Of a stretch of 64,000 nt of DNA, positions 34,831-60,242 are shown piece after piece. Both the position numbers and the translations under genes were made by a program. Source of the stretch: Psammoneis japonica (taxonomy: Eukaryota); assembly GCA_008632985.1 (NCBI GenBank), contig QPGO01000005.1, positions 951,607 to 1,015,606 on the forward strand, written 5' to 3'. The stretch's first letter is position 1. The number at the start of each line of letters is the position of its first letter. Under the pieces are notes generated by a model. It was not told the DNA's origin. It saw only the letters and a program-made list of their open reading frames with translations, and did not search any database.

Positions 34831-35985
34831 ATGTGTTGCCAGGGTTAAGTCTTTGCTCTAGATCATTATCATCTTTTCTTCAAGGCATGTTGGGGCTCTC
34901 ATGCGGTGCCTTTCTGAGTTGTCTTTTCTGATCGTTTCCTGTTGACGTCTACGCAGTACACTATACACTGCTCTCCTTCAAGTCATTGCTTGGACTCTTC
35001 CCCAAACTCTAGCTAGCTAGCTTAGCTGGAGAGAAGGGGTATTAACAAGTAATAATTATGAAAAAGCGTAACAAATTCATTTCAAAACAGAGTTCACGCG
35101 CCCATAGTCTCAAATGAACCTTTTTCCGCTGTGTCAAGTTTCAACTCACCTCTATCTACTTCTCTTGTAGAAAATAGCATTGGTTAAGTTTAAGGTTCTC
35201 GAAATGCAGGTACGTGGTCGCTTCGGAATTCGAAGGTAAGGCCGCGACGTATCCCTCAAGAGAGACAGGCTCATTCCATCCAACTCGTTCGCTCTCCAAC
35301 GAACGATTGACAGGCAATACTTGTAGCTAGAGTGATGACGATAAAGGCAGCTAAGAAAGGTAGCTATTTTTCGGATTCTTTATCAAAATAGACTATTCTC
35401 TAGCTAGCTTTCTCTACTAGTAGGGCCTAGATGGCGAGCTCTCCATTAGACAGCGCGCGAGGGAAAGGCATCCCTTTCCACAATGATGTCTCCCCCTTAA
35501 ATAATCGAAAATGCCACTTTCAACTTACCGTACTGTACAGTACTGAGCTTTTGTACAGTATGTAATTGCGGCCTACCTACCGGGCGGTATGAAACTACTA
35601 GTTCTTGACATCCAGAATCGATCAGGCATAAATAAAAATGTATCGTACAGTGCTGTATGTACGAGGTCACTTCTTCGCACAAGAGGAGTCACTTGAGCAC
35701 AAAAAACAAATCTGTTTACCTTTGTTTACTGGCACTGTAGGCCCTGCTCTCTCTGGTGGAGTGTTTGCGTTTCTCACCTGTTGACACATTGACAGGTGGT
35801 GTGGTGCTTTTTACTGCTGATTTGTTTTTGGTGGTGGGCACCGGAGATCCCGGTGAGGCTTGTTTGTCTCGATGTCTCTCCAAGTGCAGTCGGGACAGCC
35901 TCACACCAGCTTTCTCGTGTGACTTCACTTTTTTGCTTTGTCATTCTTCAGTGGGTCATCTTCAACCGATCCATGCTCTTCAAGG

Positions 35986-38006
35986 ATGCGCGTTCTCGGT
36001 CCCCTTTGGGGGTTGTGTGCTTTGTTCTGTCTCGGCAACGAAGTCAAGCCTGTTGTGCCGACCTGTGATTGCCCCGCATTGCCAACCGTGAACTTGACAG
36101 CGAATTTTGTGTTTGTCGTTTTCGCAAAAGACCAGCTGGTGCAGGATGATCTTGATGATTTTGGCACTCTCTTCAACAAGACGCATGTGGAATTCTTGGA
36201 AAGCAAAAATTGTTTGGAAGATCTTCGCAAGATCAATGCAGTCGTGGTTGAGTTTGACAGCATTGTTCCTGTCAGCGTCGCTGAGGGCAACTGCAATCTT
36301 CAGTGTAGCTTGCTTGTCGAGGTTACAGGGACGTGTCGGACGTCAGGCAAATGCACAAGTTTCTTTGCGAAGAAGAGAATGGGCAAAGGGAAAGGGAAAT
36401 CGAAAGGCAGGAGAAAGAAGCACAAGACCAATGGACCTGGACGCTCACACGGACGTGGGCCCAGAGGTGACTCAAGCGGTGATGCCAAAGGTTTGTTTGC
36501 CATCAGCGAGCCCGGAAGCCAATTCAGGCAAAACACCACACAAAATTGTGAAAAATGCAAAAAACTTGGAAGAGACAAGTTTCTTGATTTGTTCAGCGAA
36601 AAGGTTGCCACGGAATCCGCTGGTGACCCGACAAAGAAAATGTGCTCTTCTAAGTCAGGGAAGGAGTTTGTGTCAAGGCCCATCGACGAGTGTGATCCGA
36701 ATGACTTTGTCGCTTCTAACGCTAGATTTGGGTTTTCCTTTGCAGCGACTTGCGATGAAACCAACCCTGTTTTTCTACAGAAGTTGACTGCCGAGTTGCG
36801 GAGCATTGGATTTGAATCGGTTCCTAGAATCAATCGACCATTTCCGAAAAATGCGACCCTGAGTTCCCAATCATCAAAACTCTTGAGCTGGATTCTGCAG
36901 TTGTTGAGGCCTGTGGCTTCTCTGAAGTGCGACGACCAAGACGATTTTTTGGCCAATGTTCGGGTGGCGCAAGGAAATCGAGATCCAGAAAGCTCAATGA
37001 CAGGCGTCTTCTTGCTTTGGATGATGATCACAGCGCATTCAACAGGGAACTCAGTCATGGCATTGGCGTGGGACTCCCTCCATGCGCGTGCAGCGCCGAC
37101 ACCACACTTGCCCATGTCACTTCCAAAGATTTGAAACAGGCGTTTAATTCGCAAATCGAAATCCTGCGCAAATCTGGAAGTGTTGAATGTGTCAGAAACG
37201 GATTTGATTCTGCTGAGCGCGAGGATGACAATGACCCTGACTGTGACCCAGGAGAAGCATTGCCAAAGGCAGGTGCCAATTGTGGGGAAGGCAACCAGTT
37301 TGCCCTTGAAGTCAACTGCAACAATGGTGAAGCGTTTGAGTGTGACGAGTGTGCCACCGATGTTGCCCCCGTTTTCCGAGAAGGCTTTGTGCCAGAAGAA
37401 GGTGCAACGGGTTTCTCTCATCAGAGATGTGTCTCGGAGTTTTCCTGTTTCTCCTTGATCGTCAATGATCCATTTCCTCCGGGCAGTGCACTTTCCGTGA
37501 CATTGGACGGCGCACCCGAGTTGTCCGTTGGACCTGCAGTTGTCAGCTCTGGTGGATTTGACCTGAATTTTGGATTCTGCAATGCTCCCGACAAATGCGG
37601 TGAGTGCGACGAAGGCAACGGAGGACCGCAATGTTTGTCGCCATTTTGTTGTGACAGCGTAGAAGATGGCAGGTGTGATTTCTGCGGTGATTGCCTTCAA
37701 GGCTCGTGCAGAGGTCTTTGCAGCTTTTGTGCTGCTTGCGGCGAGGCTCCTCTGGATCCTCCCATTCAATGCGGCCCAAACTGTGGAGCTGAGACTGAGG
37801 GCGTGCCAGCATGCGGAACAGATGGTTGCGCTGAATGCGAAGAGATTTCTGAAGCTTGTCCTCCACCAAGCTGCCCTGACGCATGTGGCGAGCGTGCAGA
37901 TTCACTTGCAGTCACTCTCTGTGCAGTCCAAGTGAACGCGAATCTTGTGAGGACGTCTGCCAAATGGACGGGGACTCGTGTTTGCTCGTGTGGGAAAGAG
38001 GGATGA
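35986..38006 (+). pseudogene. Secreted Cys-rich protein gene, TpA-depleted and frameshifted (~36820): block B
   Basis: Signal peptide 'MRVLGPLWGLCALFCLG'. Two overlapping ORFs (398 and 359 aa) contain no Tyr at all. The second frame picks up at 'STISEKCDPEFPIIK'. 36001-36300 has 0 TpA but 13 CpG. Confidence 0.7.
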
Positions 38007-38562
38007 AGCCGTTGCTTGACAGCTGAAGCTGCAGAACTGCAGAAATGCGCGTTGGATGAGCAAGGGCATTTCATGACTTTTCAACACAGTGATTGACATC
38101 CAGTCACAACAACTCAGTGGTGGCAGAAGTCAGGTTTTTGATTTGTTTTGTTGGAACGCTGTTCTCTCTAGGAAAGCACTTGTGATGGTCATTTGTCTCT
38201 CTCTCTCTCTCTCTTGCTAGCTAGAAAGGATCTGGCACCCATCAGGATCTCCTTGCAGATTCTACTTTGAAGCAACTCAAATGTCACCGTGTCTCGAAGC
38301 TGTTTGAAAAGTTCCCGTCTGGGACACACGGCATTTTGTCGCATTTGGCGACATTTTCTTAAATGAATTGATGATTTGTCGCGAAAAGACGCGAATTGCG
38401 ACAAAATGTCCGGGTTGGCGATAAACGGGACAGAAACATTGTTTAATTAAGTTATGAAATGATTAATGTCATTTATAACCAACCTGAACTTTGGCGATGT
38501 CGTTTCAATAAGTGGGGTAATTAACAGAATTTGGCGATCGATGTCATCGACGAAAATTCATC

Positions 38563-38757
38563 CGACAAAATTTGTCGTATACGACAAAATTTGTCGGACA
38601 TCCGACAAATTTGTCGGATGTCCGACAAAATTTGTCGCATACGACAAGACACGACACGACACGACACGACACGACAAGACACGACACGACACGACAAGAC
38701 ACGACACGACACGACAAGACACGACACGACACGACACGACACGTCACGACACGACGA
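38563..38757 (+). repeat. Four CGACAAA(A)TTTGTCG palindromes followed by a (CGACA/AGACA)n microsatellite
   Basis: Palindromes start at 38563, 38582, 38603 and 38623. Pentamer run 38642-38757. Confidence 0.95.
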
Positions 38758-39031
38758 CTCACGAACGAAACACCCACGCCCCCCGCACACGCTAACCGCT
38801 AACGTCTCCGTTGACACTACCGGTATGTCTCTTTTGCGCGATGATGCAAAGCGACGATCATGCCGCTCTCGGCGGTCTCCATACTCTCGTCAATACCGGG
38901 ACAACAACACTTCTACATAGTGCAACGGAATGTACCGGTATGTATTGCTGTACTGTACCTTTTATCAGTACGACTGGGCACTTCTGAATGTTGGGGAGCG
39001 TTGCGTTATCGGTATGTCGCAAACGTCCGTC

Positions 39032-39216
39032 TGTCGGCGTTTGTCGGCTCTTGTCGGCTCTTGTCGGCGTTTGTCGTACGTTGTCGGGGTTTGTCGGGGC
39101 TTGTCGGGGTTTGTCGGGGTTTGTCGGGGTTTGTCGGATACGACAAAATTTGTCGTACGTCCGACAAAATTTGTCGTACATCCGACAAAATTTGTCGTAT
39201 CCGACAAAATTTGTCG
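39032..39216 (+). repeat. 10-mer TTGTCG-containing tandem repeats followed by four CGACAAAATTTGTCG palindromes
   Basis: 'ttgtcggggt'-type units 39032-39137. Palindromes start at 39141, 39162, 39183 and 39202. Confidence 0.95.
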
Positions 39217-39605
39217 TACGTACGACAAAATCGCCAAAACATTAATTAATAAGTACAGTCTTCGCCGAAAGTTAAATTCATCATATAGCACTGTAGTTGA
39301 TATAACGTGTGTGTTTAGGACACGCCATCGCCAATTAAATGATGATTTTGTCTTATTTTTCGCCAACGGTTGAAATTTGTCTCAAAGGGCGTTTTTCACG
39401 ACAAATCGTCCAATTCATTTATGGGAATGTCGCAATTGGCGACAAAATGCCGTGTGTCCCTGCTGAGAATCGCGCACGGCGGCATTTTCAATTTAGACCG
39501 CGAAACATCAGGGGCGAAGACAGACCATTCGTTTCACTCTTTGTATTGTGTGACGGACGCGCGTCATCATCCGGCATTTTTGCGACGAGCGTTCACAGAA
39601 CGATG

Positions 39606-39812
39606 ATGCCACAGTCAACAACCAAAGTCCCGTCGGCGTTGATTGCACCACCAACATTGCTTGCAACCAATGCAGCACTGCTGCACAATGGGATGATCAG
39701 CTCATGACAAAAAGCACCACAGAAAACAGAAAATCGAAAAAGAGCTCGAGAAAACAAAAATCACAAGGGATTGACGAACGCCACAAGGACAGCGACAACC
39801 ACAAAAAGTCTC
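39606..39812 (+). pseudogene. Mutated duplicate of the upstream region and first ~40 codons of the gene at 60904
   Basis: 39688 'atgggatgatcagctcatgacaaaaagc…aaaagtctc' aligns by eye with 60904 'atgggacgatcagctcatgacgaaaagc…aaaagtctc'. Confidence 0.88.
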
Positions 39813-39814
39813 AA

Positions 39815-40652
39815 GTTGCTGCTCTGCCGCCAGTCATGTGTGCATGTTGTCTGGTTGCACTGTCTTGCATTGGTGCAAGATGCAACAAGTGACCATGGCC
39901 AGTGTGGCTGAGGCAGAGTTTTTCGCAGCTGGTGCTGCTGGAGAGCAAGTGCTCCTGCGCCTTTGCCGCATTGTCAAGGAGCTGGGATTCGCCCAAGTCA
40001 GACTGACTCCCGTGTTTGTTGTCAAGAACAAACTGACCATCAGGGTCACCAACAACTGTGCCCCCACTGAGCGATCCTGTCACATCATTGAGCGATCTTG
40101 CCACATCACCACCCAGTGGTTTGTTGCCCAAAACCAGAGAGAGACAGGCCATGTTGTCGCTGGACACATCCCTGGCATCACCAGCACAAGCAATGCCTGT
40201 GCCCAGGCTCTTGAAACAATGCTGCACACCCACCATGCTCATTGCATGATGGGGCACTGCCTTTGACATTTTGCCACTGAGTCTGATGGCATCTGCTGAA
40301 CGCAGCCCTTTTGCATTGTGTGGTTTCTTTCTGGTTGACTGGAGCCTTCCCCGCAGCCATTTGTTGTGACCATTGTGATCTTCATTGTCCAGTTTGGGCA
40401 CGTTGGGTGAGGGGGGTGTCAGCTGGCAAATGGCGTGGCACTTGGCCAGATTGCATGCACTGGACAAGGTCACAGGCACTTTTGGATGGCAGAGCAGATC
40501 TCAGGTCAAGATCTTCTCCTCACTCTTTCTCGCTGGCATGCATGTTGTCCCTGTTGCTGGTTTGCAGGGAGGCTCTGCATGCTTGTTGCTCTTGCTGTCA
40601 CTGCTCCATCAGTTGCACATGTTTCTTGTGAGCAGCCAGTGGCTGGTTGACA
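39815..40652 (+). mobile_element. Decayed Ty1/copia 3' end: RNase H, polypurine tract and probable 3' LTR
   Basis: 'CMLSGCTVLHWCKMQQVTMASVAEAEFFAAG' and 'RSCHITTQWFVAQ'. PPT GGGTGAGGGGGG (40405-40416), then TG at 40417. The LTR resembles those at 50512-50701 and 60243-60516. Right end tentative. Confidence 0.75.
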
Positions 40653-42369
40653 GAAATTGAAGATGACTGGGTGGAAGAAAACAATGGCTCCTTGCTCCTG
40701 CTGTCTAAACAGCAGATGAGCCTCCATGCAGAGACTGTCACAGGAGCCAAAAGACTGGTGTCATGATGTTGGTGCTGCTGTCATTGTTCTTCTTGTGAAC
40801 CAAGTGGCTCAAAAGCAAGCTGCACTGCACATTGTGCATGGAACTGAGAACACACACAATTGTGTGAGACAAGCCAAAATCTTGTTTAAATCCTGTCACT
40901 CCCCAGTTTGCTTTGGGAGTCTACAGCAACAGATTCTTCAAGGTCAGATTGGACAAAGGCTTGGGATTAAAGTTCCAGAACATCAGAGGGCAGAGGAGGC
41001 TCCAGATCTGGGATCAGCCCCTGTGCTTGCTGAGAATGTCAGTCAGTTTGCGGGAACCTTTGCATGGTGGATGGAGAGGGTGGTGTGTTGCTTGTGTGAC
41101 TTGGAGCGAGGGATGGCAGCACTGTCCACAACTGGCTTGTTGTCCCCAAACATGTGACACATGTCATGAGTTGGGACACCAAGGCAACACAAAGTGATGG
41201 GAAGACCAATGATCTGTTCAACACATGTCCTTGCAGCAACAACCAGAGATCATCCACACATTTCAGTCTCAACTGTTGCTTGTTTCTTGGAGAGCCAATT
41301 GGCCAGAAACTTGTTGAGGAAATGGATGACACCCATGACAGAGCATCCAGTGAGCACTCAATGGAGCAAGTTTGTGTCAACATGGTGGGTCGTGGTGACA
41401 AACTTGCCAAGTGGCTCAGGCATGTCTTGCGAGAGGAACTCTTCTGCCTCCCCACACACAGAGTGAGCCCAGTCGTGCACTGGCTCAGGCAGGTCCAAAC
41501 AGTTGGGTTCCTTGGTGCACACTCGGAGGGCACCATGTTGCATCTTGGACAGGTGTCTGCAGACATGTTTGGCACAATCTAGAAGGCCTTGATGGGGTGC
41601 TGCATGCAAGCTAGACAGGGACATGACTTCCACAGCAATGTCAGTGTGCGACGGAGCAATGCAGCCCTTTGCAGGGAACCAACCAAGGACTGGAGTTCAT
41701 GGATGCCATCGGGTTTGAGCAATTTGGAGGTGTCAAGCTCAGGGTGGACTCCTTTTTCAAGAGGGGAAAGCATGCCAGAGTGAGGCTTTTCTCCAAAGAG
41801 ACATGCACAGTTGTCAACCATGCGCTCAATGCACTTGCAAGGAGCAAGGCACAGGGAGCATCGGAGTCATGAGTGAAGTTTCAACCAAGGTGGAACTCCA
41901 ATGATCTAGCACCCTTGAGCTTGAACTTGCATTTCTCTGTGAGGGTGTTTGCAAAAGCTTGAGGGTCCTTCAAGGTGAAAGCCAGGTTGTCCACATGTGT
42001 TGCCATGTGTTCACATTGGTTGCTCATCAGAGCACACAACATGGTGATCATCACACATCTTTTCATTGTGATTTTCATTCCTTTTGTGGACAATTTTTTT
42101 GTGGTTTCAAACCTCGTTGGTTGTGCAGCTGGCAATGACATGTCAATTGTGACAGATTGACATTTTCATGCTGTGGGATCAGACCCCCCCTCCCCATGAG
42201 GAAAATTGTTTCGCTGTGAAACAGGGGCACGTTTTCACCATGAGAGTGCCCACCCTCTGTCCTTGCAAAACCTGCAAATTAAAATCATTTGCGTTGCACC
42301 ATGAACGTTCCATTTTGTTGTTTGCATTCAAACTAAATGACGCCAACAGAGACAACACCCTAGAGTCTG

Positions 42370-42840
42370 CAGCAGTTGCAGCTCACTTTCTTCAAGTGCC
42401 GCTGCTGGCAACCACCTTGTTCATTGCCAAAAAAGTGCAGAATGTGTTGTGAGAGTGCAGCGTGGATGAGCCAACACCACCAACAGGAGTGGCAACATGG
42501 GCTTGCCGGCACATCCAGTGCCGCTGATTCTGGAACAGGTGAGTTTGCAGCAGGAGCTGCTGCTCCATTGTTTGAAGTGCCGCTGCTCTGTTCTGCCTCA
42601 TTCATTGCCAAAAAGAGCAAAACACATTGTGAGAGTGTTGCATGGATGAACCAACACAACCCATGGGAACGGCAACATGGGTGTGCCAGTGCACCCGACA
42701 CCACTGATTCTGGAGCAGGCAAGTTTGCAGCAGAAGTGCTGTTGCTCCTCTGGCACTGATCCACCTTGTTCATTGCTGAAAAGCACAGAGCACATTGTGA
42801 GAGCATGATGCAGATGAACTGGCATGAACCACAGCACACA
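42370..42840 (+). repeat. Three degenerate ~170-180 bp tandem repeats
   Basis: 'ttcattgc…ttgtgagag…gatga' recurs at ~42420, ~42601 and ~42769. Confidence 0.8.
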
Positions 42841-42979
42841 CTCACCGGTGCATTGGTGCATCTGGCGCAGCTGATTCAGGAGCAACGTAGATGCCGGTGT
42901 GCAGTGTGAGATGTGGAGCCCCCAGCTCCACCCCTGCAACTCAAAGAAAACACAGAAAGAAAGCATGTGAGCAAGCAAA

Positions 42980-43400
42980 AAACCTCCTGTGCTGCGGACG
43001 GTGCACTGATGACATGTTTGGAGCACAGACCAGAAACAGCAGAGAGACTTGGGAAGCCTTTAAAAATGAGCCCAACAGTTCAGGCAACCTTCGATGGGTT
43101 GCCTCCCCACTCTCCACCTCTGCAGTCTTTCTGGATCCGGACACAGAAATTGGAGAAGATGGGTGCAACGCAAGTGAACACATCAAAAACAAACGAAGCT
43201 CTTTTTGTGCATGCCTTTTTTGAAGAGTGCCAATTGTGGTGTTGCAATGAACTTTTCATGTGTGTGATTCTGAGAGCTGCAGGAACAAGCACCGCCTGCA
43301 GTCTTTCTGGATCTGGGTGCAGAAATTGGAGAAGATGGATGTGTTGTTGGCAAATGCATCAAAAACCAATGAACCTCTTTTTGCACACACCTTGTTTGAA
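42980..43400 (+). mobile_element. Penelope-like reverse transcriptase fragment (decayed, internally duplicated)
   Basis: 'LLCCGRCTDDMFG…TWEAFK…GNLRW…SAVFLD' and 'HQKPMNLFLHTP' match YY.RY.DD…V.FLD…YQKPMNL.LY.P after reversing Y->C/H. Confidence 0.65.
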
Positions 43401-46400
43401 CAGTGTAATTTGTGGCAACTTGTGATGATTCTGGACGCAAAACTCTGACATGCACGATTGCACCAATGCTGCAGAAAAGCAAGTTTGTGACGTGTGTGCA
43501 CACAACACACAACAACACACCAGCAGCTCAGCATTCTGGATGTGGCAGATTCATGACAGCACACTCGCGATCACAAAATTCAAGCTGTGCCTGAATGAAG
43601 CCCCGCCTTGACCAACCAGAAGGACAGCAGGTTTTGCCATGCATGGAGCTGCTGTCATCAGCCAATGGGGCAAAGTCTGTGTCACCACCATGGCCAGTTG
43701 TTGATTTGCAGATTTGCAACCACACGCAGGTTCCACGTGAATCACAACAGCACACGCTCTTGTTTTTCAAACTTTGGGGAGAGGGTGTGCTGTTGTGAAG
43801 TGTGCAGAAAATTGCGCATGCAAAACACATGCTGAAAATGCCGTAGACCAACGTGCTGCACAAATCTGGGAAACATGAAGAAAAATGAAGGTGGGTCACG
43901 TGCGTGTGTGAAGTGCTGCAGACTGCACACTGCAAAGACACACACACAAGTGAGGAGGACAAAGTTAAAACCAAGTTCAAATTGATCACGATCAAAAGGA
44001 AACCAAACCATGCATCACAAAAAACAGATTTTGATCTCAATTGAATTAAACATTGCGTGCATTTGATTGAAGCTTGTGCAAGAAAAGTCAATGAGACATC
44101 AGATGAAATGCAAAAAACAGCTTCATTTTGTTGAGCACTTTTGCTGGCATTTTTTTAAATTCTGCTTGTTGACAATTTTTTGACAATGCACATTAAAAGT
44201 TTTGCAAAACAAAGTGGAAACCACTGCATTGCTGCCTCTGATGCTGTTCTGATGCAACCCGATGTCGAGTTCAGCACAACACAGGAAGAAACCTCTGGCG
44301 TGCAAACAATTGGCAAAGCATTCATGCCACCTGAGGCCAGAGCTGCAGAGTCCATGTAGAGCCTTGTGGATGACAAGGATGTGTCCTTCCAGCTCACCAA
44401 ATTTGGGGCCTGCTGGTGCAATGTGCAGTTTCTCTTTGGCTGCAGCTTTGAGACAGGTGTTGCCAATGTCGGTTGCCCATGTCTCTCCAGTTCATTGAGT
44501 TCAGCCAGGAAGATCATCAGCCAAAGACCACAGAGGGGCACCACTTCAGAGCAGACACTGTCAATGGGCAGCACATCTGTGAGGCATCTGTTGTTGACAA
44601 GTTGTGCCTGGCCTTGTGCCTGCTGTCATGCTTGATGTCATGGATGAGGTGGACCCTGATCCTCTTGTGTCTTGCTGGGGCACCGCTGGAGTCCTTGCAG
44701 TGGTGTTCACAATTGTGAAACACCTTGCACTCACCAAGCTGAGTCATCTCAAGGTCTGTTGCAGCTCCCCACTCATGGTTGCCATTGTGTGCTTGTCGAG
44801 GGCCTGTGTGTGCTTGCAGTCCCAGGGCACTTCACAGCCATGCTTGCATCATGGTGCGCAGTGTGAAACAAGCACAGCTTGGTTTGGTTGGCCATGTGGA
44901 ACAGCTTCTTCTGGTGCAGAGCTGTGGTTTGGTGGAAGCATTTCCATCCATTGGTTTCAAGTGAGCCATGCTCACATGCGCAGATGGCACAGGTGATGGC
45001 ATTGTCTTTGGCAATGATGGCAAGAGGTTCAGATGTGATCTCCCCATCTTCCCATTCAAGCCACAACGGGCAGCACCAATGTCATGTCACCAGTCTTTCA
45101 GCTCCTGCAATGGGGTCTTTGCACAGAGACTCACCCACCAATTGGACAGCAGCAAGGAGTCATTGTTTTCTTCCACCCAGTGTGGCTGTGACAAACAAAA
45201 ATGTTGTTCAAATTGTGTTGCTGGTTGAATTGTGCACTTGGGTCATGTTGGCATTGAGGCTGTGGCTTGTGGGTCTGAGCTTGTTGCTGCAACAACAGCA
45301 CCAAGACTTGTGCAAAACAGATTGTTGACTCTCATGATGGCGGGCCTGTTTTGCACTGCATCAGTGTCCTGATCCACAGCACCAGCCACACATTCAGTGA
45401 GACAGCAAGTCAGTCATGGGCACCATGCTGCTGCTCTGCACTTCAAAGAGCCACACAAGCAAAATGCAACCCTCTCATTTCACCACATCCATGAGGCAAC
45501 AATTGCTTCAGGTTTTGTGCCCAGTTTGTGGGCTGCACTCTCTGGAAATGCTGAGACAGTGGTGTCTCAAAGTTTGATGATGAATGTGGAGCAACCCAGA
45601 AAAATTTGATTGAAAGACAGAAGCAGAAATGACAACACAAAATGTCAACAACACCTCAAAGCTTAACAGAAAGTTCTGACTGGGCAGTGGATTGACCCAT
45701 GCACTGTCATGGCTGTTGGTTGTGTGTGTTGGTCTCTCTCAACATTTCACATGTGCTGTCTGTCTGTCCCCACTGCTGGCTTAAAAAGTCTGCCTGCAGG
45801 CCCATTTGTGGCATGCCAGCTCATGTTTCATGCAAGAGAAAGACATGTGAAGTCTGTCCAAGTGACACAGCCAGATTGCGCTCCTTGCCATTTGCCGCTG
45901 CACTTGCCACACCATGCACGTGCATGTCGCCAATGACGCCAACAAAAATTTCATGACATGCTGGGGCAGCAGTTGCTTTTGTGTGGATCCGGGTTCTTGT
46001 CAGCTGTGCTCATGCTTGTTTGAGCTGACTCAGCAAACAGCCCCTCTCAGCGCAGTGGACCAGCTTGCCATTTGCTTCTCACAGTGCTGCTTGGCTTCCA
46101 GAAATCAACACAAACCCACAATCATCCCCTGCACACAGGACACAGGTGTCAAAGCAGCACAAGAACAATGAGTGATGGTGTGTGTTTGAGCACCGCCTGT
46201 GTGCCAGCTGTGCATCATCATGTGCTCAATGGCGGTGCGCCACAGCAGTGCCAGCAGGGAGTCAACCCATTGCCCCTTCTTGGCCACACATCGCTGCCAC
46301 TTGCTCCTCGCAAAATGTGATCTGGCTCCCTGATGTGGACAAACTTGTTGCAGCCAAGCAGATGTGCAGAGGCAAGCTTTTTGCCACTGCTTTGTTCTCT

Positions 46401-47778
46401 TTTGCATTTCATTTTTCAGCTCCTGGTTGCTTTGATCACATCCTCCATTTTGTTGCAAGCCTGCCAGTGGCAGCAGCTGCTTTCCAACAACATGCTTTCA
46501 CTTGCCAAAGATTGCAGCACTTGCAAGGCTGTTGCGTCCAATCACAAGAACCCACAGAATCTGCAGCACAAATGGTTTGCCTGGTGCATGCAGATTGTGG
46601 TGGCACTGCAAAGAGACGTGTGTGGTTTGCAGGCATGAAGCCCACGTCCCCTCCCAGCCAGAACAAGAATGCCAAGCAGGAAGAGGTCTGTGAAACGCAA
46701 AACAACAACAGCGCCAAAGTGCTCTCTTCTCTTTGCAAGACGTGCAAAGGAGATCTGGACCATGGAGACAATGTGTCAGTGAAGAGGGTCATTCCTGCGT
46801 GGACAGCAGATGACTTCCAGGTTGTGAGCCTTGACATCGCTTGGCACAAGAAGGCAGCCATCTGCAGAATTGTGAAACATCAAAAAATCTCTTCAGCACA
46901 TTGTTGTCTTGATGCCAGCAGTGAGTGCTTGTGGCACACCCACCTCTGTTCTGTTGATGCCATTGATGCACAAATCATTGTTTGCTTTGTTGCTTTCATT
47001 GGTGTTGTCTGCCGACGTTGACCGCACTCTCACAATGTCGACCATGAGAGGTGGGCGTGGCCAGAGAATGTCCAGGAGCTCAAGAGTGTGTTGCTTGCTG
47101 CCCACAGCAACCAGGTGGAGCATGGCTTGTGACATGGGAGGTGGCAACAAGACCCTGAAGTGCTGGACTGAGAAAATGTTGTGTCAACGCACACCCATGG
47201 TGCATTTCCGTGTTGGCCACCTGTTGCTTTGGGTGAGAAGAAGAAGCCACGGTCATTGTGCAAAGCCAGCGGCCAACATGATGAGCACTCTGCTTCTTGT
47301 GCATGCATTCTCCACAGCATGCTCTGCCACTAAAATGACCCCCTCACAAGCTGCACTCTCTTTTTTCCTCCCCGCAAAAAGGGGGTCGACACAAGCAAAG
47401 GAGCCTTGCCACCGAGGTGTGATGAGATCGGAACAGAAAAGAGAGGAAATGAAATGCGAGACATGACAATGGCGCGCTCTCGAGAAGAAGGAACCTGAAT
47501 CCGACTGTCAGATTAAAATGACCACAGTTTGATCGAACAACACACGAAAAAGAACAACCATTGCGAGTTGAGAATTCGCCAAGGCGAGCGGAATTTCATT
47601 TTGTGACGTGGGCGCTTCAACTAAAAAAATCGAAGCAAAAATGTACTAGAGTACAAATTCTACGTACCGGTAGTACACATATCATAACGTACAAGATTCC
47701 TTCGACCAGCTTTTTTCAGTGACACGCTTGTTCTTTTCGACATGATGTCCATGCTGTACTGTACGCGACCGACCAACC

Positions 47779-48279
47779 ATGAAGTTTCTCGCTTTCTTCT
47801 TATTCTTGACGACTGTCGTCGTTGATGCCAAGAACGGTGCTGGCATTGCCACTGTCCTCAGGGGCGCACAAGCATTGAAGGAAGGAGGTTTCGGATTTGA
47901 CACCCTTCGTTGCGCGGAATTAGGAGAGGAGGGGTTTACGAGTAGGAGTGTCATCATATACGAACGATCCGGCACTTGCTGCATTCCTGGTGGCAGGGGA
48001 AACGACCTTTTGATTGGAGGCTGTGGGGATGATCGAAGGGTGGGAGGAGGAGGAGGAGGAAACGATGTGTTGCATGGTGGTCGTGACGAATGTGCCAAGC
48101 TTAGGGATGGTGGACCTATATGTCTCTGCCAAGATCCAGCAGTTCCCACAACGTGCAGTCTAGTTATCCCAAACAGCTGGGAGGAAGCTGCCAAAAATGC
48201 TGTCGAAAGCGCCAAAGCAGCTCTCCAGTGCGACGTTGAAGGTGGGCAGGTTGTTGTCAACTGCGGCGATCCCAAGTAG
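47779..48279 (+). CDS. Small secreted protein with RTX/hemolysin-type Ca-binding GGxGxD repeats
   Basis: Signal peptide 'MKFLAFFLFLTTVVVDA'. 'GGRGNDLLIGGCGDD…GGGGNDVLHGG'. TpA and CpG both present, TAG stop. Confidence 0.7.
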   Translation: MKFLAFFLFLTTVVVDAKNGAGIATVLRGAQALKEGGFGFDTLRCAELGEEGFTSRSVIIYERSGTCCIPGGRGNDLLIGGCGDDRRVGGGGGGNDVLHGGRDECAKLRDGGPICLCQDPAVPTTCSLVIPNSWEEAAKNAVESAKAALQCDVEGGQVVVNCGDPK

Positions 48280-49079
48280 TTGGTAATAGCATCAACGCTG
48301 CAGGAAGGGAACGGAAAGTTAAATAACATCATACACGAAAACAAAACCAGAAAGCTCCTCGGACTCCTCGAGACTATGTCGTGATTTCATCTGTCAGCAG
48401 AGGGCACATATAAGAAGCAGTCGGTTAAGAGCTGCACGTGTGCAGCGATACATTGAAAATATTAGAAAGGTCCAGATTGTAAATGGTACATCAAATTGAG
48501 AAGTTGCCTCTTGCAGGGTGACAGTTGCAGACAATCTAGCCACCAACATTCACAACTTACGCGTCACCACATAGCATACAGGAGGACAATTCGCGATATA
48601 CTGTAGAGCACAAAACATGCTCCAACTCAAGCATGCATCGTCTCGCTTATACTGGCATCCTTCATTGCTGGGCATCCTCAGGCTTGTTTAACCACACGAG
48701 TACTGTAGGACCATCCCGTCTAGCAAAAAAGAATCTCGGATTGCCAAGAATCTCCCAAGCTCACATCTGATGAATGCACGAGGCACCAAAGAATTCCGTG
48801 TGTTCTGTCTCCAACAAAGCTTTTTATGCAACACTGTCATGCAAGCAGTCTTCCTTCTTTAATTTTCTCAATTGAAAAATTTGCATGGACTGGCACCATT
48901 GGTGTGTTCCCTCCCATTGTTTTCAAATGTTGTTGGTGTCGTCTTTTGCCAATAAAATGCAAAATCATCATTGTCGACTGTGCCAGTCCTGTCTCCTGTC
49001 TCACCAAGCTCCTGAGCTCAGCTCCAAAAAGTTGTTTTGAAATTTTGGAAGCTGAGGCACACTCTTTGTCTCACCCATT

Positions 49080-49330
49080 GCAAAACACAACAATTGAGCA
49101 AAATTTCTTTCCCTGTGCAGATGTCATGGGTTGCCACCAAATCCATCCAAAGCCCAGGTGGCCACACTTCATGAGCTCATCTTAGTTTCTCATGATGGGT
49201 GGGAATCTTGAGCACCAGCATGACTTGACACTGCTGACATTCATGGTCAATGCAATTGATGACACTGGTGCAGTGCATCATGGGAGAAAAGAGGAGCACA
49301 AAACTGTCAGTGTGGTGAGCTGAAAGATTT
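49080..49330 (-). pseudogene. Decayed SET-domain gene fragment
   Basis: 'HTDSFVLLFSP…SVINCIDH' (NYINH-like) and 'GLWMDLVATHDICTGKEILLNC' (ATRDI..GEEI..NY-like). Confidence 0.5.
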
Positions 49331-50511
49331 CAAACCATGTCTCCAACTCACAATCTTTTGGATCCTCACAGCAAAGCAAGTGGCCACAACACGTGGATGT
49401 TGCTGATGCCATTGTTTCACCTTGCAGTGTTGGGCCCACTGTGCTTGTCTGTGTGCTTCTCAGCCATTGCACTTGAAGAATGTGGCAATGTTGCTCACAT
49501 GATTGTGCAGATTGAAGTGGGGCAAGGAATTCTTGCATGGACAAACTTTGTCGGAGGTCGTTGTCTTGGCCAATGGCAACTTTGTTTGGGAGAGCCACGA
49601 CAGCATTTTTTGGGCCATTGTCAAAACACTTCTTGTGTTTTTGGCTGCCAGCCAATGCTGAAGCCCTCCCACTTGCTTTCCATTGCAATGACTGATCAGC
49701 TGCAGAGGGTGAGATGTGCACTGTCACCAAGCTGGCGTGTGCCTTTGACAAGCTCCCATTGTTCCACATTGTGGCACACTGCCCCAATGAACAGCAACCT
49801 CAATTGAGAACTTCATCAAGTGGTGCCAGGCATGTGGAGTTGGCTGTTTGTGAGTTTGAAGCATGATGGCAGAAATGAGAGGGAGGAGGTGCATCCACCT
49901 GCTGACAAGCTCCCCAAACTTTGCAAAGCCACTCTGTGTTTGCTCCATGTTCAACACAATTTTGCAGCAACAGGTTGTGCCACGGCACTCTGCTGCACTG
50001 GCTTCCAGTGATTCCTGCATCTTGGCATGGCCTTGTGCTGGGCCACAATGTGGTGCATTTTTTTCAACAGCCTTGTCAACAGCTCCAAGCAAATGCAAAC
50101 ACCAGCACAGTGTCAGTGCCAAAGGTTGGCAACAAATGAGGAGCAGCTGGTGAGTGATTTGAGGTGCAATGACATGACAAGATGTGAAGAAAAGGGCATG
50201 CAAAAGCTTGAGCAAGAAACTCCACACCTCAGAGAATGAAGCAAGGTGGCCAAAACACTTGGATGTTGCTGGCGCTGTTGCTCTGATGTCTGTTGACTTC
50301 TTTGCCATTGGCTGCACAGCCTTGAAGCTGAGCACAAAATCACATTTTTTTGTTTTTCTGTCCCCGGAGCAACGGTGCTGTGTTTGAACAATTTGCCGCC
50401 AACACAAGGCACCACCCACAACAACCATTTAAAGTGCACACAATGCATGGCAAAAAGCATGCCAAGAAACCATCAAGATGCGTGCTTTTCTTTGCAGCTG
50501 GTGCTGTGAAG

Positions 50512-50701
50512 TGACAGAACACCAAAGGGCAATGAGGACAACAGCATGACAGACTCCCCAAGCACTGGGATTGTGATGACATGAGTGCCAGTGGAAAGAA
50601 GTGAGAGGCAGATCTCAGAGAGATCTGCTCGTCTGTCTGGATGACAGTCTGGTCATCATCTGTGCACAGTCAGTCTCCATCACAGGACAGGTGGGCTTGC
50701 A
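50512..50701 (-). repeat. 3' LTR (truncated), preceded by polypurine tract AGGGGAGGG (50710-50702)
   Basis: Begins TG at 50701 on the minus strand. Aligns with 60332-60516, including a long near-identical core 'gaaagaagtgagaggcagatctcagagagatctgctcgtc'. Confidence 0.85.
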
Positions 50702-53700
50702 CCCTCCCCTGTGATCTGCAACATCTAAAAACAGAAGACAGTGCAAATCAATCCAAAGAGTGGGAATGATGCAAACAGAGAGGCCAAAGGACACAACAAG
50801 TGTCCAAGCCCAACACGCAACAAACAAGGGGGCAATGTGCAGCAGGGGGGGCACCATGGAAAAAACATCAACGGCAGTGTCCCATCATGCGTTGAGCATG
50901 GCAAGCATGGAGCACCCATCCTGGAGCCTTGGCAAGGTTGTTGCTGGGATTGGACAATGCCAGGGACATGTCATGCAACAATCTTGCCTGCTTTTTTTCC
51001 ATTCTTGGGTCAAAAAGAACCCAGTGTCAACATGACGTGAGCACTTGGTTGGAACGGAATGGCTGATTTGGGAGAAACCCAATTCATGGAGAACATGACA
51101 AAGACAAAGGATGTGCTCAGCAGCAGTGCCAGCATCATGGAACTTGGCTTCCACAGAGCTTGCAGCAGTCACCAATTGAGTCTTGCACCAAATGGAAATG
51201 GCAGCACCCGCCAACATGCAAGCATGACCTGCAGTGGAACGGTGGTCATGAAGGTCATTGCCACAGGCAGCATCCAGGAAAACAACAAGTTGATGATCGC
51301 ACTCAGTGATGGGAAAGGATGAAAGGGTTGGGTCAGCAGTCAATTGCTCACATGAGGACAGGGAGGCAGACTGGAGTCACGCTTGGGTTTCTTGTGGCTC
51401 AATTCCCAATGCTTGGTTTGCCAAAGATGCTTGCAAGCACCCTTCAGTGCACCACAATGTGCTTCAGCAGGGCAGGCAGAGAACTTGGAAAGGGCAGTGA
51501 TTGCACACCCAATGTCCAATTGACAGACAACATGTGTGTGCAGCAATTCACCAAGGAGGGTGTGGCATCCAAAACCGGCAGCCTCTTCAAGCTCCGCATG
51601 CTCTGGTGTGCCTTCAGTGGGACCAACAGCAGCCCACAATTTGCAAATGGAGTCAACACTGCCAGGAACTGGAGTTGCCTCAAAGTTGTCAGTGAGTTCC
51701 TTGGCAGTCAGTTTTGCCCAACCATGTGAGAGACACACTCAGTCAATGCAGCCGTGGATGGCAACACCAATGGGGTCATCATGCTGGTGAACATCCATGC
51801 CATTGAAGTCTTCAATCAACCCGAGATGCTTGAATGGTGGGGTGGCTTCCAAAGAATGTTGGAGGGCCTTGCCAATCTCAGCACAGATTGTGATCACATG
51901 GGATTCTTCAGGACAGGCAATCAAGAAGTCATTGACCTGGTGAAGCAACAAAATTTTGTGTCCTTCGAATGCAGTGGAATGGACGACACACTTGTCATGC
52001 ACAGCATTGCGGAACAACGGAGTCACACCCATCAGTGGTTCTCCCAGAGCATGCCGGCTTCTGGGTGTCCTTGGAGTGCATGTTGCATTGGCAACACCAA
52101 ACTTCTGTCCAGCTCAACACACCAAAATGTTGGGACTTGCACCATGTTGCATGCACATCATCAACAGCAACATGGACAGAACACTGGACAACTCATGGCA
52201 GCCACCAGAGCAAAGAACATCCTTTGGATGGGCTGTTCAACACAAAAGGAGTGCGTTGAATGGAGACAGTGGAGAACAGATGCTGCACGTTGGGAGCCAT
52301 CACAACATTGACAAGAACGTCTCATGCCATCATGCTTGAGGTCATGCTGCCAATGTGGACAAAGGATGATGGCATCCTTGGGGTGCTTGATCAAGGCACC
52401 AAACACACCCAGTTTATGGAATTGATCCAATTGCTTGAACTTGCCTGCACGCCATTCAGAGGCCGTGCAGGTGGCTTCTTGTTGAGATGGTGCCAAGCAA
52501 AGGCACCCAGTGCCTGCTCCTCCAGAATGACAGCTTGAGAGGATGTCACATGGATGTTGACAACACTGTTGTCACAGTCAATGGAGACAGAGACAGGGGG
52601 AGGAACATTGTTGTCATTGATGTCAGAGAAATCAACACCTGGGTGGCAAATCGCAGCAATGGCATGGGTGTCAGCGTGTGTTGGCTCCAGGACATGCTCA
52701 TCATCAGGATCCAGAGTGGATGAAAAAATGTCATGTTCCGCCAGGGCACATTGCAAAGCCTCAGAGTCAAGGCAGTGTCCAGGTGCAAGTTCAATTTCAA
52801 AATGAGTCACTTTCCAAAGTCACAGGCCTGTTGCAGATGTTTGACTGCATCTTCAGCAGCAAAGACATGTTGATCATCAACCAAAACAATGCAAGCACCC
52901 AGAATCTTGTTGCATGTCACCTTCAAGGATGAGAAGAGATGGGCAGCAGGAGTGCCACACCCAACATTCAAGACAAAAACTTGTTGGTGCAATTCATCCG
53001 CAGTCAAGGGCAAGCCAAAGTTGGGATCAGCAAAGGGGCCTTTCATTGCATGCATGATTGTCTTGGCAAAAGGGTTGCCACCAAAGTGGAGCTCATCCGC
53101 AGTTCTTTCCTTGGTCTCAGCAGGGAATGGCTTGCCAGCCGTGTGTTCCAAGTGAGCCACATTCAGATGAATGGGCTCATGACCCAAATCATTCATGCCC
53201 TCATCAAAGCTGATGTGCTTGGCAAGCTTGACCTGAGACGTCTCAGTGTCACACCACAAGACACTCTTTGTGGCATCCGGGAGGTGACCAAGGAACAGGC
53301 CCTTGTGGGAGATGGTCCAGAATTTTTCCGGATGGTGATTCGAGGCATGAAGCCAAACACAACAACCAAATGTTCAGAGAGCAGTGAAGTCATCTTTTTG
53401 ACCAGCAGCAAGAGCAATCAGGGCCACAGTTTGTCCTTGGGAAGATGTGGCATTCTTGATGCAAAGACAATGGTGAAAAGCATGAGGCCAAAATTTGATG
53501 GGCAAAATTGGCACCTGTCAGCATGGCCTGAATGGCACTTGCAATGGTCAAATGACTCCGTTCAACTGGGCCACTTTGGTTTGGAGCATCTTTTCTAGTG
53601 TGGGACAAATTGCACAATGGAAGTCATCCTCAAAAAGTTGCCGAGCTGCCGGATTGTCACACAGTTCACCACCTTGATCCAGAAAAACACACTTGTCTGG

Positions 53701-55499
53701 ACATTTTGGCAAGTGCTCTTCCAGAAAGTGGCAAACCCAATTCAATGGAGTGGCCTTGGGAACACGAGCAGCACCATGGAAACACTTCATAAAATGATCA
53801 TAAAAACAGCGATCCAACGTGTCTCACCATTCAAGCCAACACAGTTCTTGGTGCACGTTCCTTGTTCTTAGAGTGCAATCCAGAGAAAGAAAAGTCCACA
53901 GTTGGACCTTGGCAGGGTTGAGTGGCAGTCAAAGTGGTGTTCAGACCAGTGGGTTCCTTGGTCTGATTGGCTCAGATGCATGTGGGACAAGCACTGGGGG
54001 ATGAACCATGAGCAAACTTTGGAACACCATCAATGCACTCATGAGCATGATGCAAGCAGTGATCACTGGGATGCTCAAGTCATTGATGCCATGAAAAATG
54101 TTCCGTGTTGGCCTTGAGAGATTGGACAGGGGTGTTCTTTCCTCAGCATGCGCTCTTCAAATGGCACATTCTGACAGACACAGGGAATCAACTTCCGCTC
54201 CACATGCAGGGCATCAGTTGGTGTCAATGACGTGTTTCAATCATGTGTGCCAAAACTGCCTCACATTCTTCAGCAAAGGATGGATCACTGGTCTTGAGAA
54301 ACTCAATTGATGCATCATGTTGGCAGGGTCTGTCATGCAAGGTGGGATCACTTGATTGACAAGGCAATCATGAAACAAGTCCACAATGTTCTTCTTGGGT
54401 TGAGCATGCTGAACGGATCCAGATCAAATGTGGAGTCTGCACAGAGCACATTCAGTGATGTGTGGAGATGCAGCATTGAGACATGTGGTTGGAATTCACA
54501 ACAGATCTCTGCAACAGACGTGGGAGCAGCCTTTGTGAGAAGGTCTCGGGAGGTGCCATGGTTTCACCTGGTGAAAACATTTTTGGTCATGCACACACAC
54601 ATGCAGAAATCTGGCATGTTTCTACGAGCAAGAAAAATGCAGGGAAAGGAAGAAAAAAATGCTTTCAGGAACAAAAGATGAGGCTTGCTTGATCAGCTCA
54701 CAAAGCAAATGAATTGAAACAGAAAGAGTGGTGCAGAATTTGGTGGCACAGTGCAAGGCCACATCTGGGACACCAACAATCCAGGTGTCACACTGGACGT
54801 CAAGATTTTTTGAAATAAAACCCATCATCTTCTCCATTTGGTCCAAGATTGTGCTAATTTGTCAAGTCTGTGTGTGTGTGAAATGTTCAACAACAAACAT
54901 CTGCATTCCCCAATTTAGCCATTTGCCACCCCTTCCAACAAGCCTCATGTGTTCATTTGATTTTGTGTCAATTTCTGGATGGTGTGTCAATCAATTTTCT
55001 GCATCAAAATCACCGCACACATTCCTCAAGGTGGACTCTGCTTGCCTTCTAAATTTTCTCTCCCCGCCCATTCCATCCTTCCGTCCACGACGCCTCCCCC
55101 CATTGCACCTTTTTTCTTGTCCTCCATTTCCACCCTGTGTCACTAAATCCCCAAGTGATTGTTGCTGCACATGCTGTTCCGTTCGATTCTCTTCTTGACA
55201 CTCCTTTGTCTCTGCACATTGGCCATGTTGTCTGATGGTCTTGTTTGTCCTTTCTTTTCTGAACGCGGTCTCAGCAGGCATGTTGCAACCAACTGCCTCC
55301 ATTCCGCTGTTCCAACCAAGTCTTTTGGTTGTCTTTGTTGCAGACAACGTGGTTTTGACTCCGAAAACAATGTGCAGCATCACCTGTCTTGGCACTGCAC
55401 TGCTGCATCTGTTCTCCCTTCCCCATTGACACAGTTGCGCCACAAAACCCAATCATCTTCCACATCCGGTGGGACATCTCTTTCCTCTCATCCTCTGGA

Positions 55500-57900: not shown

Positions 57901-58771
57901 CTTCAGGACACTCGTTGGACAGCATCTCCTCAAGTTGGTTCTGTGCCCCAATGTCATCAAAAAGCATCCGCTCATTGAAAGAATGCATGTTCCTGTGATG
58001 GGAGCGATTCACAACAACCATGTCTCAGTGACAATGTGATGCTTTGGTGCCATTGGAGAGCCAAAAGAGAAAGTGTGAAATTGTGGACAGGTGAGCTCCC
58101 TTGTGCACACACACACGTGTCAGAGAAGTGGGTTGGATCAGTTTGGGCAACAGAGAGAGCAGTTGGAGAGAGATGGCATCGGGTGGTTGAGGGAATGATT
58201 GATTGAGATGTGATTGAATGAAAAAGAGGCAATGAGAGATGCAGATTTGTGCAAAAGAACAGGGGGTTTGACACAATTTTTTAAACCAAATGAAACTGAT
58301 GTTGCATCAGGAAACAGGTGCAATGCATGCATTGGGATGAGCACACAAGATGCATTTTTTGACGTTGATTCAAACAATGTGGCAATCTTCATTGAGGTGT
58401 TGGATTGGCTTGCAATGAAGCACAACTCAAAACAGTGGAAGGTTGACAGAAATTCAAACATGGCAGGTTGGAAATGAGCACTCAAAAATGACACAAACAA
58501 ATGTTTAAATCAAGAGAGGATGCGCGAGCAACAACAAAACAGAGAAAATCACATGCAAAGTGCACTCATTTCGAAGCTCACCTGTTCATAAACTGACAGG
58601 GCAAGGACGGCAGTTGAACACAAGAGGCAGCCATTGGGAAGGACAAAAAGATGGAGGAGACAGTTGTCACAGGAGCAACAGAGGGAGGAAGCAAAACTTT
58701 GAGCAGCAAGTCAGGTTGAGAAGGGCATGACAAAGAGTTCCTGATGAACCAACAACCTGTGATTTTCCTGT

Positions 58772-60230: not shown

Positions 60231-60242
60231 TGGCTCATAAGT
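60231..60242 (-). other. Primer binding site complementary to the tRNA-Met anticodon arm (half-tRNA type)
   Basis: Minus strand reads TGTTGTCA|ACTTATGAGCCA. The plus-strand 'ggctcataa' matches the Met tRNA anticodon-loop sequence. Confidence 0.6.

Follow-up and report, generated by a model that had tools for sequence, protein, structure and literature searches.

A dead copy of a gene start at the edge of a hypermutated transposon block in the diatom Psammoneis japonica

Targeted mutation of the dinucleotide TpA has so far been in print only once within the literature searched, in a 2026 preprint on a chlorarachniophyte. In Bigelowiella natans, two integrated viral regions gained 231 single-nucleotide changes, of which 230 were A to G or T to C at TpA, and the rate in these regions, measured in mutation-accumulation lines, was about 1000 times the background; the authors (Mettrop et al.) propose an ADAT-like adenine deaminase (bioRxiv 10.64898/2026.01.13.699255). 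The search found no report of TpA hypermutation in a diatom, with most papers in subscription journals outside its reach. Here we describe a stretch of 64,000 nucleotides (the window) from the diatom Psammoneis japonica (GenBank assembly GCA_008632985.1, contig QPGO01000005.1, positions 951,607 to 1,015,606, forward strand), in which a dead copy of the start of a DUF3752 gene lies at the edge of a block of decayed retrotransposons. We compared the copy with the intact gene, and the copia elements of the blocks with outgroup polyproteins. The phenomenon is a diatom counterpart of TpA hypermutation that has gone nearly to saturation and coincides with CpG decay, and the TpA loss carries the exact signature of the hypermutation in B. 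natans.

As in B. natans, TpA is replaced by TpG or CpA on either strand, the changes are limited to delimited regions (there foreign or selfish DNA, here mainly transposon remnants), and the long-term outcome is low TpA with high TpG plus CpA. The B. natans signature is enriched in open reading frames (ORFs) for reverse transcriptase and DDE proteins, and the process there was read as genome defence, possibly by adenine deamination. The two cases also differ. The host here is a diatom, a stramenopile, rather than a rhizarian chlorarachniophyte, and the targets are remnants of long terminal repeat (LTR) retrotransposons and their flanks, including a host gene fragment, rather than viral DNA. 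The observed-to-expected ratio (O/E) of TpA here is 0.00-0.12, near saturation, compared with 0.45 in the B. natans viral region. TpA loss here overlaps a zone of CpG decay, whereas the preprint reports none. The signature here is historical and was read from sequence, whereas the B. natans rate was measured in lines. We also list as a difference the tetranucleotide bias of the surviving TpAs, among which RTAY (R, purine; Y, pyrimidine) is absent and TTAA survives best.

Two other systems resemble parts of the pattern. CpG decay in methylated transposons, by deamination of 5-methylcytosine, is described in vertebrates and plants (PMC3829696). Repeat-induced point mutation (RIP) of fungi strikes the two copies of a duplication alike and turns C:G into T:A, chiefly at CpA (PMC2621366). 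Our locus is like methylation-driven decay in that CG became TG or CA on both strands and in transposon-rich DNA only, with 26 of 42 conserved arginine positions now TGN or CAN (N, any base). Unlike that process, CpG depletion here covers a narrower zone than TpA depletion, and in one domain of 2.4 kb TpA was lost but CpG was not. The likeness to RIP is that context-specific transitions filled transposons with stop codons and shifted dinucleotide frequencies block by block. Unlike RIP, TpA was destroyed rather than created, A:T to G:C changes are present, one copy of the pair was affected, a high-copy repeat was spared, and the host is no fungus.

Our preferred reading, to which we give a probability of roughly 0.7, is that the fragment is a captured 5' piece of the gene that decayed under two context-specific, location-targeted processes acting at the DNA level. 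A single copying event would have joined about 210-250 bp of the 5' end of the gene (5' flank or untranslated region (UTR) plus codons 1-39) to a copia element that is truncated at its 5' side, at its RNase H end, the join now being the left edge of a block. The copy would then have decayed as non-functional DNA under both of the transition processes of the block. One would change CpG to TpG or CpA, most likely by deamination of 5-methylcytosine in CpG-methylated transposon chromatin. The other would change TpA to TpG or CpA, that is, A:T to G:C at TpA on either strand, possibly by deamination of adenine. Both would act on double-stranded genomic DNA in place, be targeted by position or chromatin state rather than by copy number or sequence identity, and spread a few hundred bases into DNA adjoining transposons. 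The TpA process would be the faster or wider-reaching of the two, in keeping with the loss of seven of seven TpAs but about 60% of the CpGs from the fragment. The parental gene, just outside the next block, kept its CpGs and TpAs, non-coding leader included.

The fragment and its parental gene

The window contains three hypermutated blocks, at about 2500-11000, 39545-47500 and 49000-60500. Across them CpG O/E is 0.03-0.5, TpA O/E is 0.00-0.19, and TpG and CpA O/E are each about 1.9, compared with a CpG O/E of about 1.0 and a TpA O/E of about 0.55 in the rest of the window. Per base, the density of TpA is 0.0031 inside the blocks and 0.040 outside, and that of CpG is 0.0135 inside and 0.055 outside. 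The fragment lies at the left end of the second block (39545-47500), where TpA O/E is 0.00-0.12, CpG O/E is 0.03-0.5 from about 39830 on, and TpG and CpA O/E are about 1.9. The third block (49000-60500) ends about 400 bp upstream of the ATG of the parental gene.

The parental gene (60904-62634, plus strand) is intact and intronless and encodes 576 amino acids, with a basic N-terminus rich in Lys, Arg and Ser and a DUF3752 C-terminus; its CpG O/E is about 1.0. The match to Pfam DUF3752 (PF12572) scored 22.4 bits, slightly under the cut-off of 23.7. A protein search that included metagenome sources returned 36 homologues that were 33-43% identical (E-values down to 1.6e-94), most of them annotated PF12572 and the named ones coming from Fistulifera, Cylindrotheca and Thalassiosira. 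There were 66 invariant columns in a full-length alignment of 14 sequences, and the first 40 codons could not be aligned with the 13 closest orthologues (at most 44% identity). These matches show that the product is a diatom orthologue of the GPALPP/DUF3752 family. A read-derived contig of 1921 nt from run X2 covers about 60825-62745, starting 79 nt upstream of the ATG and ending about 110 nt past the stop codon. We infer that this span looks like that of a messenger RNA (mRNA); if X2 is RNA, the gene would be expressed and unspliced.

The core of the fragment (39685-39812, plus strand) is a copy of gene positions -3 to +118. On the same strand, BLASTN matched it to 60901-61021, with 100 of 128 columns identical and a single gap of 7 bp (E = 3e-25 when the pair was compared, 1.7e-23 in a search of the whole window), and the gene segment had no second match inside the window. 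A preliminary description of the window had proposed this duplicate, in the same orientation as the gene and about 21 kb from it, as a view of the mutations before and after, and had quoted four pairs of strings from the two copies. The alignment it called for is significant, the orientation is as described, the distance is 21.2 kb, and all four pairs of strings are found where it had placed them. The ATG of the copy is at 39688-39690. It is followed by a premature TGA at 39694-39696 (codon 3), where the gene reads CGA, and by a frameshifting 7-bp tandem duplication at about 39719-39725. The 21 mismatches in the core comprise 14 transitions and 7 transversions.

The duplicate probably extends upstream. 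On the plus strand, 39594-39684 matches 60772-60900, the 5' flank or UTR of the gene, with three net deletions of about 4-14 bp. Depending on the alignment, 55-60 columns of this extension are identical, and the differences include 14-23 transitions and 2-6 transversions. Under stiff gap costs it was not significant, either in local alignment (379 of 500 and 47 of 500 shuffles reached the score) or when anchored on the core (300 of 300 and 125 of 300). When indels of about 13 bp were made affordable, the anchored extension was significant, with 0, 0, 0 and 1 of 300 shuffles reaching the score in four comparisons, and it ran to 39594-39604 and 60772-60789. We regard the extension as probable, consistent with the start at 39606 in the preliminary description. 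Extension alignments found no homology upstream of about 39594, downstream past 39812, or past the repeat inserted at 38312-39469. The parental segment at 60772-61021 (plus strand) consists of about 115-130 bp of 5' flank or UTR and the first 118 bp of coding sequence, and contains 18 CpGs and 7 TpAs.

Sequencing reads agreed with the assembly at the fragment. A read-derived contig of 1228 nt from run X1 (depth 67.6) covers 39448-40500 with no substitutions and one 1-bp indel. It crosses the junction between fragment and transposon without a substitution. The assembly has therefore not created the junction as a chimera, and the locus is single-copy; additional depth at the fragment came from the gene's own contig alone. 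The locus was found in one run only (share 0.93), X1, which is probably the source sample; two further runs from the same sample, X2 and X3, gave one gene-derived contig and none, respectively. The fragment is a single-copy, dead copy of the start of the DUF3752 gene.

We determined the fate of each CpG and TpA of the gene in the copy with two alignments, one plain and one transition-tolerant, and the ranges below come from these two. Over the whole duplicate, 10-11 of the 18 CpGs of the gene read TG or CA in the copy. In the core, two of 11 became TG, five became CA and four were kept; in the extension, 3-4 of seven became TG or CA, 1-2 were kept, and the others were in gaps or different. The reverse case, CG in the copy with TG or CA in the gene, was found at no site in the core and at one in the extension. 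The asymmetry in the core (7:0) has a binomial p of 0.016. The core also has one CpG that is present in the block copy only, and its source is CT. Transitions in the core affected 7 of 22 CpG bases versus 7 of 99 bases elsewhere (Fisher p = 0.004), and for any change at CpG versus other bases p was only 0.06. At codon 3, the change from CGA to TGA must have happened in the block copy. Together with the asymmetry of 10-11 to 1, this change bears out the proposed direction, from CG to TG or CA, and the CpG arm is directly visible in the pair.

None of the seven TpAs of the gene was kept in the copy; 4-6 became TG or CA, one became GA and 0-2 were in indels. The core has a single one (60945), and it changed by a transversion, TA to GA. 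The other six are in the extension, where 4-6 became TG or CA and 0-2 fell in gaps; two of them form a TATA to TGCA pair within five ungapped columns immediately upstream of the core. There is no TpA in 39606-39812, compared with 8.3 expected (p = 0.0003), and the TpA-free run that contains the fragment reaches from 39545 to 40705. The non-coding leader of the gene retains 7 CpGs and 6 TpAs. Mutation of TpA in the copy, also proposed in the preliminary description, thus stands in that every TpA of the gene was lost, but the evidence is thinner than that description implied, with a transversion at the core's single site. The TpA arm is visible in the pair on few secure sites and is convincing only with the copia analysis described below. 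With about 25 informative sites, the pair is a small but useful illustration.

Direction, strand symmetry and footprint of the two changes

The fragment is joined to a degenerate but open piece of a Ty1/copia pol gene, copia A (39813-40263, plus strand), which is the C-terminal part of RNase H of a 5'-truncated element. The junction alignment placed a sharp joint at 39813±4, and copia A has nothing 5' of it. Copia A also has a 21-bp tandem duplication (ERSCHI twice). For the ORF at 39775-40263, phmmer gave 156 matches with E ≤ 0.001 (the best 1.2e-14), every one of them in the C-terminal end of a long protein, which confirms the fusion to the end of a copia RNase H that had been noticed before. 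Of the long matches tested, 7 of 7 contained RVT_2 and SH3_retrovirus and 5 of 7 contained gag_pre-integrs; Pfam gave nothing for the ORF itself. A second element, copia B (50847-54313, minus strand), is a nearly full-length, degenerate copia pol. It was found by tblastn with 18 polyproteins (best E 3e-109) and is collinear with copia polyproteins over about 1100 codons, with a weak SH3_retrovirus match at 52810-53373 (26.6 bits, cut-off 27). These matches assign the ORF at 39775-40263 and copia B to Ty1/copia elements, the long matching proteins being Ty1/copia polyproteins.

We used the 18 polyproteins as an outgroup to polarise changes in copia A and copia B at 465 codon positions, each with at least 5 outgroups aligned and at least 60% of them agreeing. 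At 15 positions with a conserved Tyr, none was kept; seven became CAY, five TGY, one TGG and two something else. Conserved Arg (42 positions) had become TGN at 14 and CAN at 12, CGN was kept at 6, AGR was found at 4, and 6 were other. As controls, all 19 conserved Phe and 22 of 23 conserved His were kept. In copia A, 6 of 7 conserved Arg codons had lost their CpG, similar to the 7 of 11 CpGs in the core of the fragment. These counts demonstrate that TA changed to TG or CA and CG to TG or CA in the blocks, in this direction and about equally on both strands (CAY 7 versus TGY 5; TGN 14 versus CAN 12). The equal block-wide O/E of TpG and CpA, about 1.9 each, points to the same strand symmetry.

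Three proteins (P0174, P0166 and P0066) among the 150 listed matches to the copia RNase H had 0-1 Tyr in 185-333 residues, with Cys or His at conserved Tyr positions and most conserved Arg kept. Copia copies of other public contigs thus show a TpA-only signature.

Repeats within the blocks gave a second view of the changes. The window has 28 self-matches, and the in-block pairs are 62-84% identical. In one such pair (50512-50702 and 60332-60517) there were 23 transitions and 3 transversions, and 16 of the transitions formed eight double differences, with CA in one copy and TG in the other. Another pair (40666-40778 and 45181-45070) had 19 transitions, 2 transversions and seven double differences, and units of the tandem array at 42363-42884 differ largely in the same way (15 sites). 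Two repeat pairs outside the blocks, in ordinary genes, had ratios of transitions to transversions of 24:29 and 64:51 and only 1-2 double differences. A CA/TG double difference has therefore arisen where one ancestral CG or TA was resolved independently in each copy.

The zones of CpG loss and TpA loss are two overlapping footprints, not one, and the block that the preliminary description had treated as a unit divides accordingly. Six block edges were examined, and at five of them the TpA loss outran the CpG loss by about 90-560 bp. TpA-free fringes with normal CpG lie at 10635-11196 (0 TpA versus 22 expected) and 39545-39684 (0 versus 5.6), and a partial, TpA-poor fringe with normal CpG lies at 60520-60870, in the promoter of the parental gene (4 versus 14, p = 0.002). 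One domain, at 35813-38168, lost TpA only, with 9 TpAs versus 94 expected and 115 CpGs versus 130 expected. We conclude that the two processes differ either in footprint or strongly in speed. The fragment sits in the left fringe of the second block, where TpA is already zero and CpG is partly lost, and this position fits its total loss of TpA and partial loss of CpG. Overall, the affected DNA is mainly copia remnants, plus the host gene fragment and stretches of 0.1-2.4 kb without detected homology. The TpA-only domain itself has no Pfam match and no transposon homology. It contains long Tyr-free ORFs in several frames, including a Cys-rich one of 392 amino acids (36828-38003) for which no homologue was found, and for this reason the domain was set aside as another before-and-after case.

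An unmutated, palindromic, CpG-rich repeat with internal short repeats (38312-39469) adjoins the fragment on its upstream side, flanked left and right by TpA-depleted DNA. Its CpG O/E is 1.8-1.95 and its TpA O/E is 0.65-0.70. The summed depth of its many variant contigs, taken over 39300-39463 only, was 3300-6700 compared with 67.6 for the single-copy flank, about 50-100 times as much. The repeat has at least about 50 copies. It probably belongs to a high-copy element that is young and still active, for example a foldback element or a miniature inverted-repeat transposable element. Because it is unmutated, copy number alone is no trigger; an alternative for this repeat is that it was inserted very recently.

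Surviving TpAs in the blocks were not a random sample of contexts. We compared the block intervals 3000-10600, 40000-47300 and 49000-60400 with the non-block parts of the window. No RTAY site (ATAT, GTAC, ATAC/GTAT) survived in the blocks, versus 418 outside. Relative survival was 0.48 for TTAA, 0.27 for CTAA/TTAG and 0.15 for CTAG. This pattern suggests that the TpA process favours a purine at -2, a pyrimidine at +1, or both. The survival of CpG varied less with context (0.10-0.45) and was lowest for TCGA and ACGA/TCGT.

Targeting by location and the alternatives

The strand symmetry of the changes, the independence of copies, the spared high-copy repeat and the damage to single-copy and non-transposon DNA together favour location-targeted mutation of double-stranded DNA. 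The transposons of diatoms are known to carry CpG methylation. Targeting by location rather than by pairwise homology, which the preliminary description had proposed from the pair, is the better-supported reading, mostly through evidence beyond the pair. The pair of about 130-230 bp cannot by itself exclude a rule like that of RIP, whose length requirement exceeds about 130-230 bp.

A homology- or copy-number-based defence of this kind, affecting the fragment only through its attachment to repeated copia DNA, would account for the facts that the mutated DNA is mostly transposon-derived and that context-specific transitions inactivated its ORFs. We consider it very improbable. RIP raises TpA, whereas here TpA was destroyed and half of the changes are A:T to G:C; one member of the pair was mutated and the other was not (10-11 to 1 for CpG, 7 versus 0 for TpA); the adjacent repeat of at least about 50 copies was untouched; and the blocks today consist of single-copy DNA that has diverged too far for pairing. 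The strongest of the alternatives, although still unlikely, is editing at retrotransposition, in which an APOBEC- or ADAR-type deaminase acted on copia RNA or complementary DNA (cDNA) and the fragment was edited within a chimeric cDNA of copia RNA and gene mRNA. Fragment and 3' part of copia are fused head to tail, both pointing the same way, and their junction is sharp, just as a template switch would leave them. The 5' limit of the duplicate, some 115-130 bp before the ATG, is close to where transcription may plausibly start (about 60825, the beginning of the X2 contig), and CpG loss is alike in the fragment (7 of 11) and in copia A (6 of 7 conserved Arg codons). However, editing of cDNA or genomic RNA marks one strand, whereas both types of change are strand-symmetric here. 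TpA-free zones also reach into CpG-normal DNA that is not transposon (39545-39684; 35813-38168), and CA/TG double differences distinguish the units of tandem repeats within the blocks.

The pair is old, with 7 transversions in 121 core bases and several indels, and it might be an ordinary neutral pseudogene that drifted with a bias to transitions, the gene looking unmutated through selection. The constraint on the coding part of the gene and the p of only 0.06 for any change at CpG agree with that view. It is nonetheless improbable. DNA outside the blocks keeps a CpG O/E of about 1.0 and a TpA O/E of about 0.55, the absence of TpA from 39606-39812 (0 versus 8.3 expected, p = 0.0003) continues to 40705, transitions are concentrated at CpG (p = 0.004), and the non-coding leader of the gene also kept 7 CpGs and 6 TpAs. 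Least credible is systematic miscalling of modified bases (5-methylcytosine, N6-methyladenine) in silenced DNA. The pattern is regional and affects exactly the dinucleotides expected to be modified, but the X1 k-mer contig (depth 67.6) matches 39448-40500 with no substitutions, and the blocks also have indels, transversions, TGA stops and copy-specific CA/TG differences. Miscalling would not give TG in one copy and CA in the other at the same site. We rejected a sequencing artefact because of the agreement with the read contig and these copy-specific differences.

Several observations weigh against our preferred reading. At two codon boundaries (61005-6 and 61011-12) the gene has TG where the block copy has CA. 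The simplest history is that the ancestor had C|G or T|A at these places and that each lineage then underwent one change. The gene lineage may therefore also have been mutated, given these two double differences and the one site with CG in the block and CA in the gene. The earlier claim that only the block copy was mutated was therefore too strong, also in view of the TpA-poor promoter of the gene. Only three TpA sites of the pair are securely aligned, one of them with a transversion, and the other four sit in the gap-rich extension, the significance of which depends on gap costs. The transition-tolerant alignment by construction favours pairing TA with TG or CA. Selection on the gene explains part of the asymmetry. 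There was no close orthologue to serve as outgroup for the pair, the best of the 36 homologues being 43% identical (44% with MAFFT), and the polarity of the pair is therefore taken from the asymmetry and the stop codon and, by analogy, from the copia elements. Methylation and a distinct chromatin state of the blocks are putative. The read check spans just 1.2 kb of the window. Finally, the fragment may have been mutated along with copia A, supposing that a single cDNA brought in both.

How the gene fragment reached the transposon is a separate question. Ty1 mediates the formation of chimeric retrosequences in yeast, and LTR retrotransposons capture fragments of cellular genes. As in such a retrosequence, the piece here comes from near the 5' end of a gene, is in the same orientation, and has a sharp joint to internal retrotransposon sequence. 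Unlike diagnosed retrosequences, the parental region has no intron to lose, and neither a poly(A) nor a target-site duplication was identified at the fragment. A template switch from copia RNA to the gene mRNA during minus-strand synthesis would give exactly this arrangement. The 5' limit of the duplicate (60772-60789) is 36-53 bp upstream of the start of the X2 contig, near it but not coincident. A DNA-level rearrangement fits equally well; the piece could, for instance, have been captured at a break, or a deletion could have come after an insertion. An LTR-like piece of the same family at 60332-60517, related to 50512-50702 and, on the opposite strand, to 40443-40574, lies about 390 bp upstream of the gene. 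Transposon-mediated capture of the fragment is plausible.

The findings place the same TpA signature in a diatom, at near saturation and superimposed on CpG decay. The pair of gene and fragment indicates that host-derived, non-repeated DNA is affected once it adjoins a transposon, and this bears on targeting. A more general proposal, somewhat less likely to be right than wrong, is that diatoms have a mutagenic defence targeted by position or chromatin, with one arm changing C to T at CpG and another changing A to G at TpA. The TpA arm would prefer RTAY and be the faster or wider-reaching one. This arm would act on resident double-stranded DNA of any origin and copy number, reach a few hundred bases into host DNA next to it, and erode captured gene fragments and adjacent promoters. 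Together with the case of Bigelowiella, TpA hypermutation would then be ancient in the stramenopile-alveolate-rhizarian clade and not peculiar to one lineage, and the pair described here would be the first host sequence seen before and after. If general, the process would reshape the evolution of transposon graveyards, pseudogenes and promoter-proximal DNA in major primary producers. It would also bias repeat and gene annotation, as spurious ORFs in six frames trap gene callers, and Tyr-free "proteins" would be a simple search marker. Diatoms can be transformed, and they would be a tractable system for finding the enzyme.

Host genes and other features of the window

The window is nuclear DNA of a diatom, and the genes outside the blocks are ordinary host genes. 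The non-block stretches code for an ABC transporter, RING/Ariadne E3 ligases, an AAA+ chaperone, a histone deacetylase and a carotenoid oxygenase. Between the second and third blocks, an island of 1.5 kb (47500-49000) has normal CpG and normal TpA and shows how sharply the hypermutation is delimited; the edges of the blocks are resolved to a few hundred bp. The island contains an ORF of 234 amino acids (47682-48386, minus strand) without a Pfam match.

TAA and TAG are nearly gone from the blocks, leaving TGA alone to break reading frames, and because of this long spurious ORFs occur in all six frames. Of the 255 stop-to-stop ORFs of at least 90 amino acids in the window, 157 fall in the blocks and the TpA-only domain at 35.8-38.2 kb. 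We ran Pfam on 131 of these 157, with 26 overlapping ones omitted by hand (mostly in the 8-10 kb array and at 36-39.7 kb), and found just sub-threshold RVT_2 and SH3_retrovirus plus three matches at chance level. The elements in the blocks have decayed too far for Pfam to recognise them, whereas outgroup polyproteins as tblastn queries succeeded. Tandem repeat arrays lie inside the blocks at 8280-9650 and 42363-42884, with units that are about 62-68% identical. The interval 8001-10000 is the most GC-rich part of the window (0.56-0.58) and is strongly skewed.

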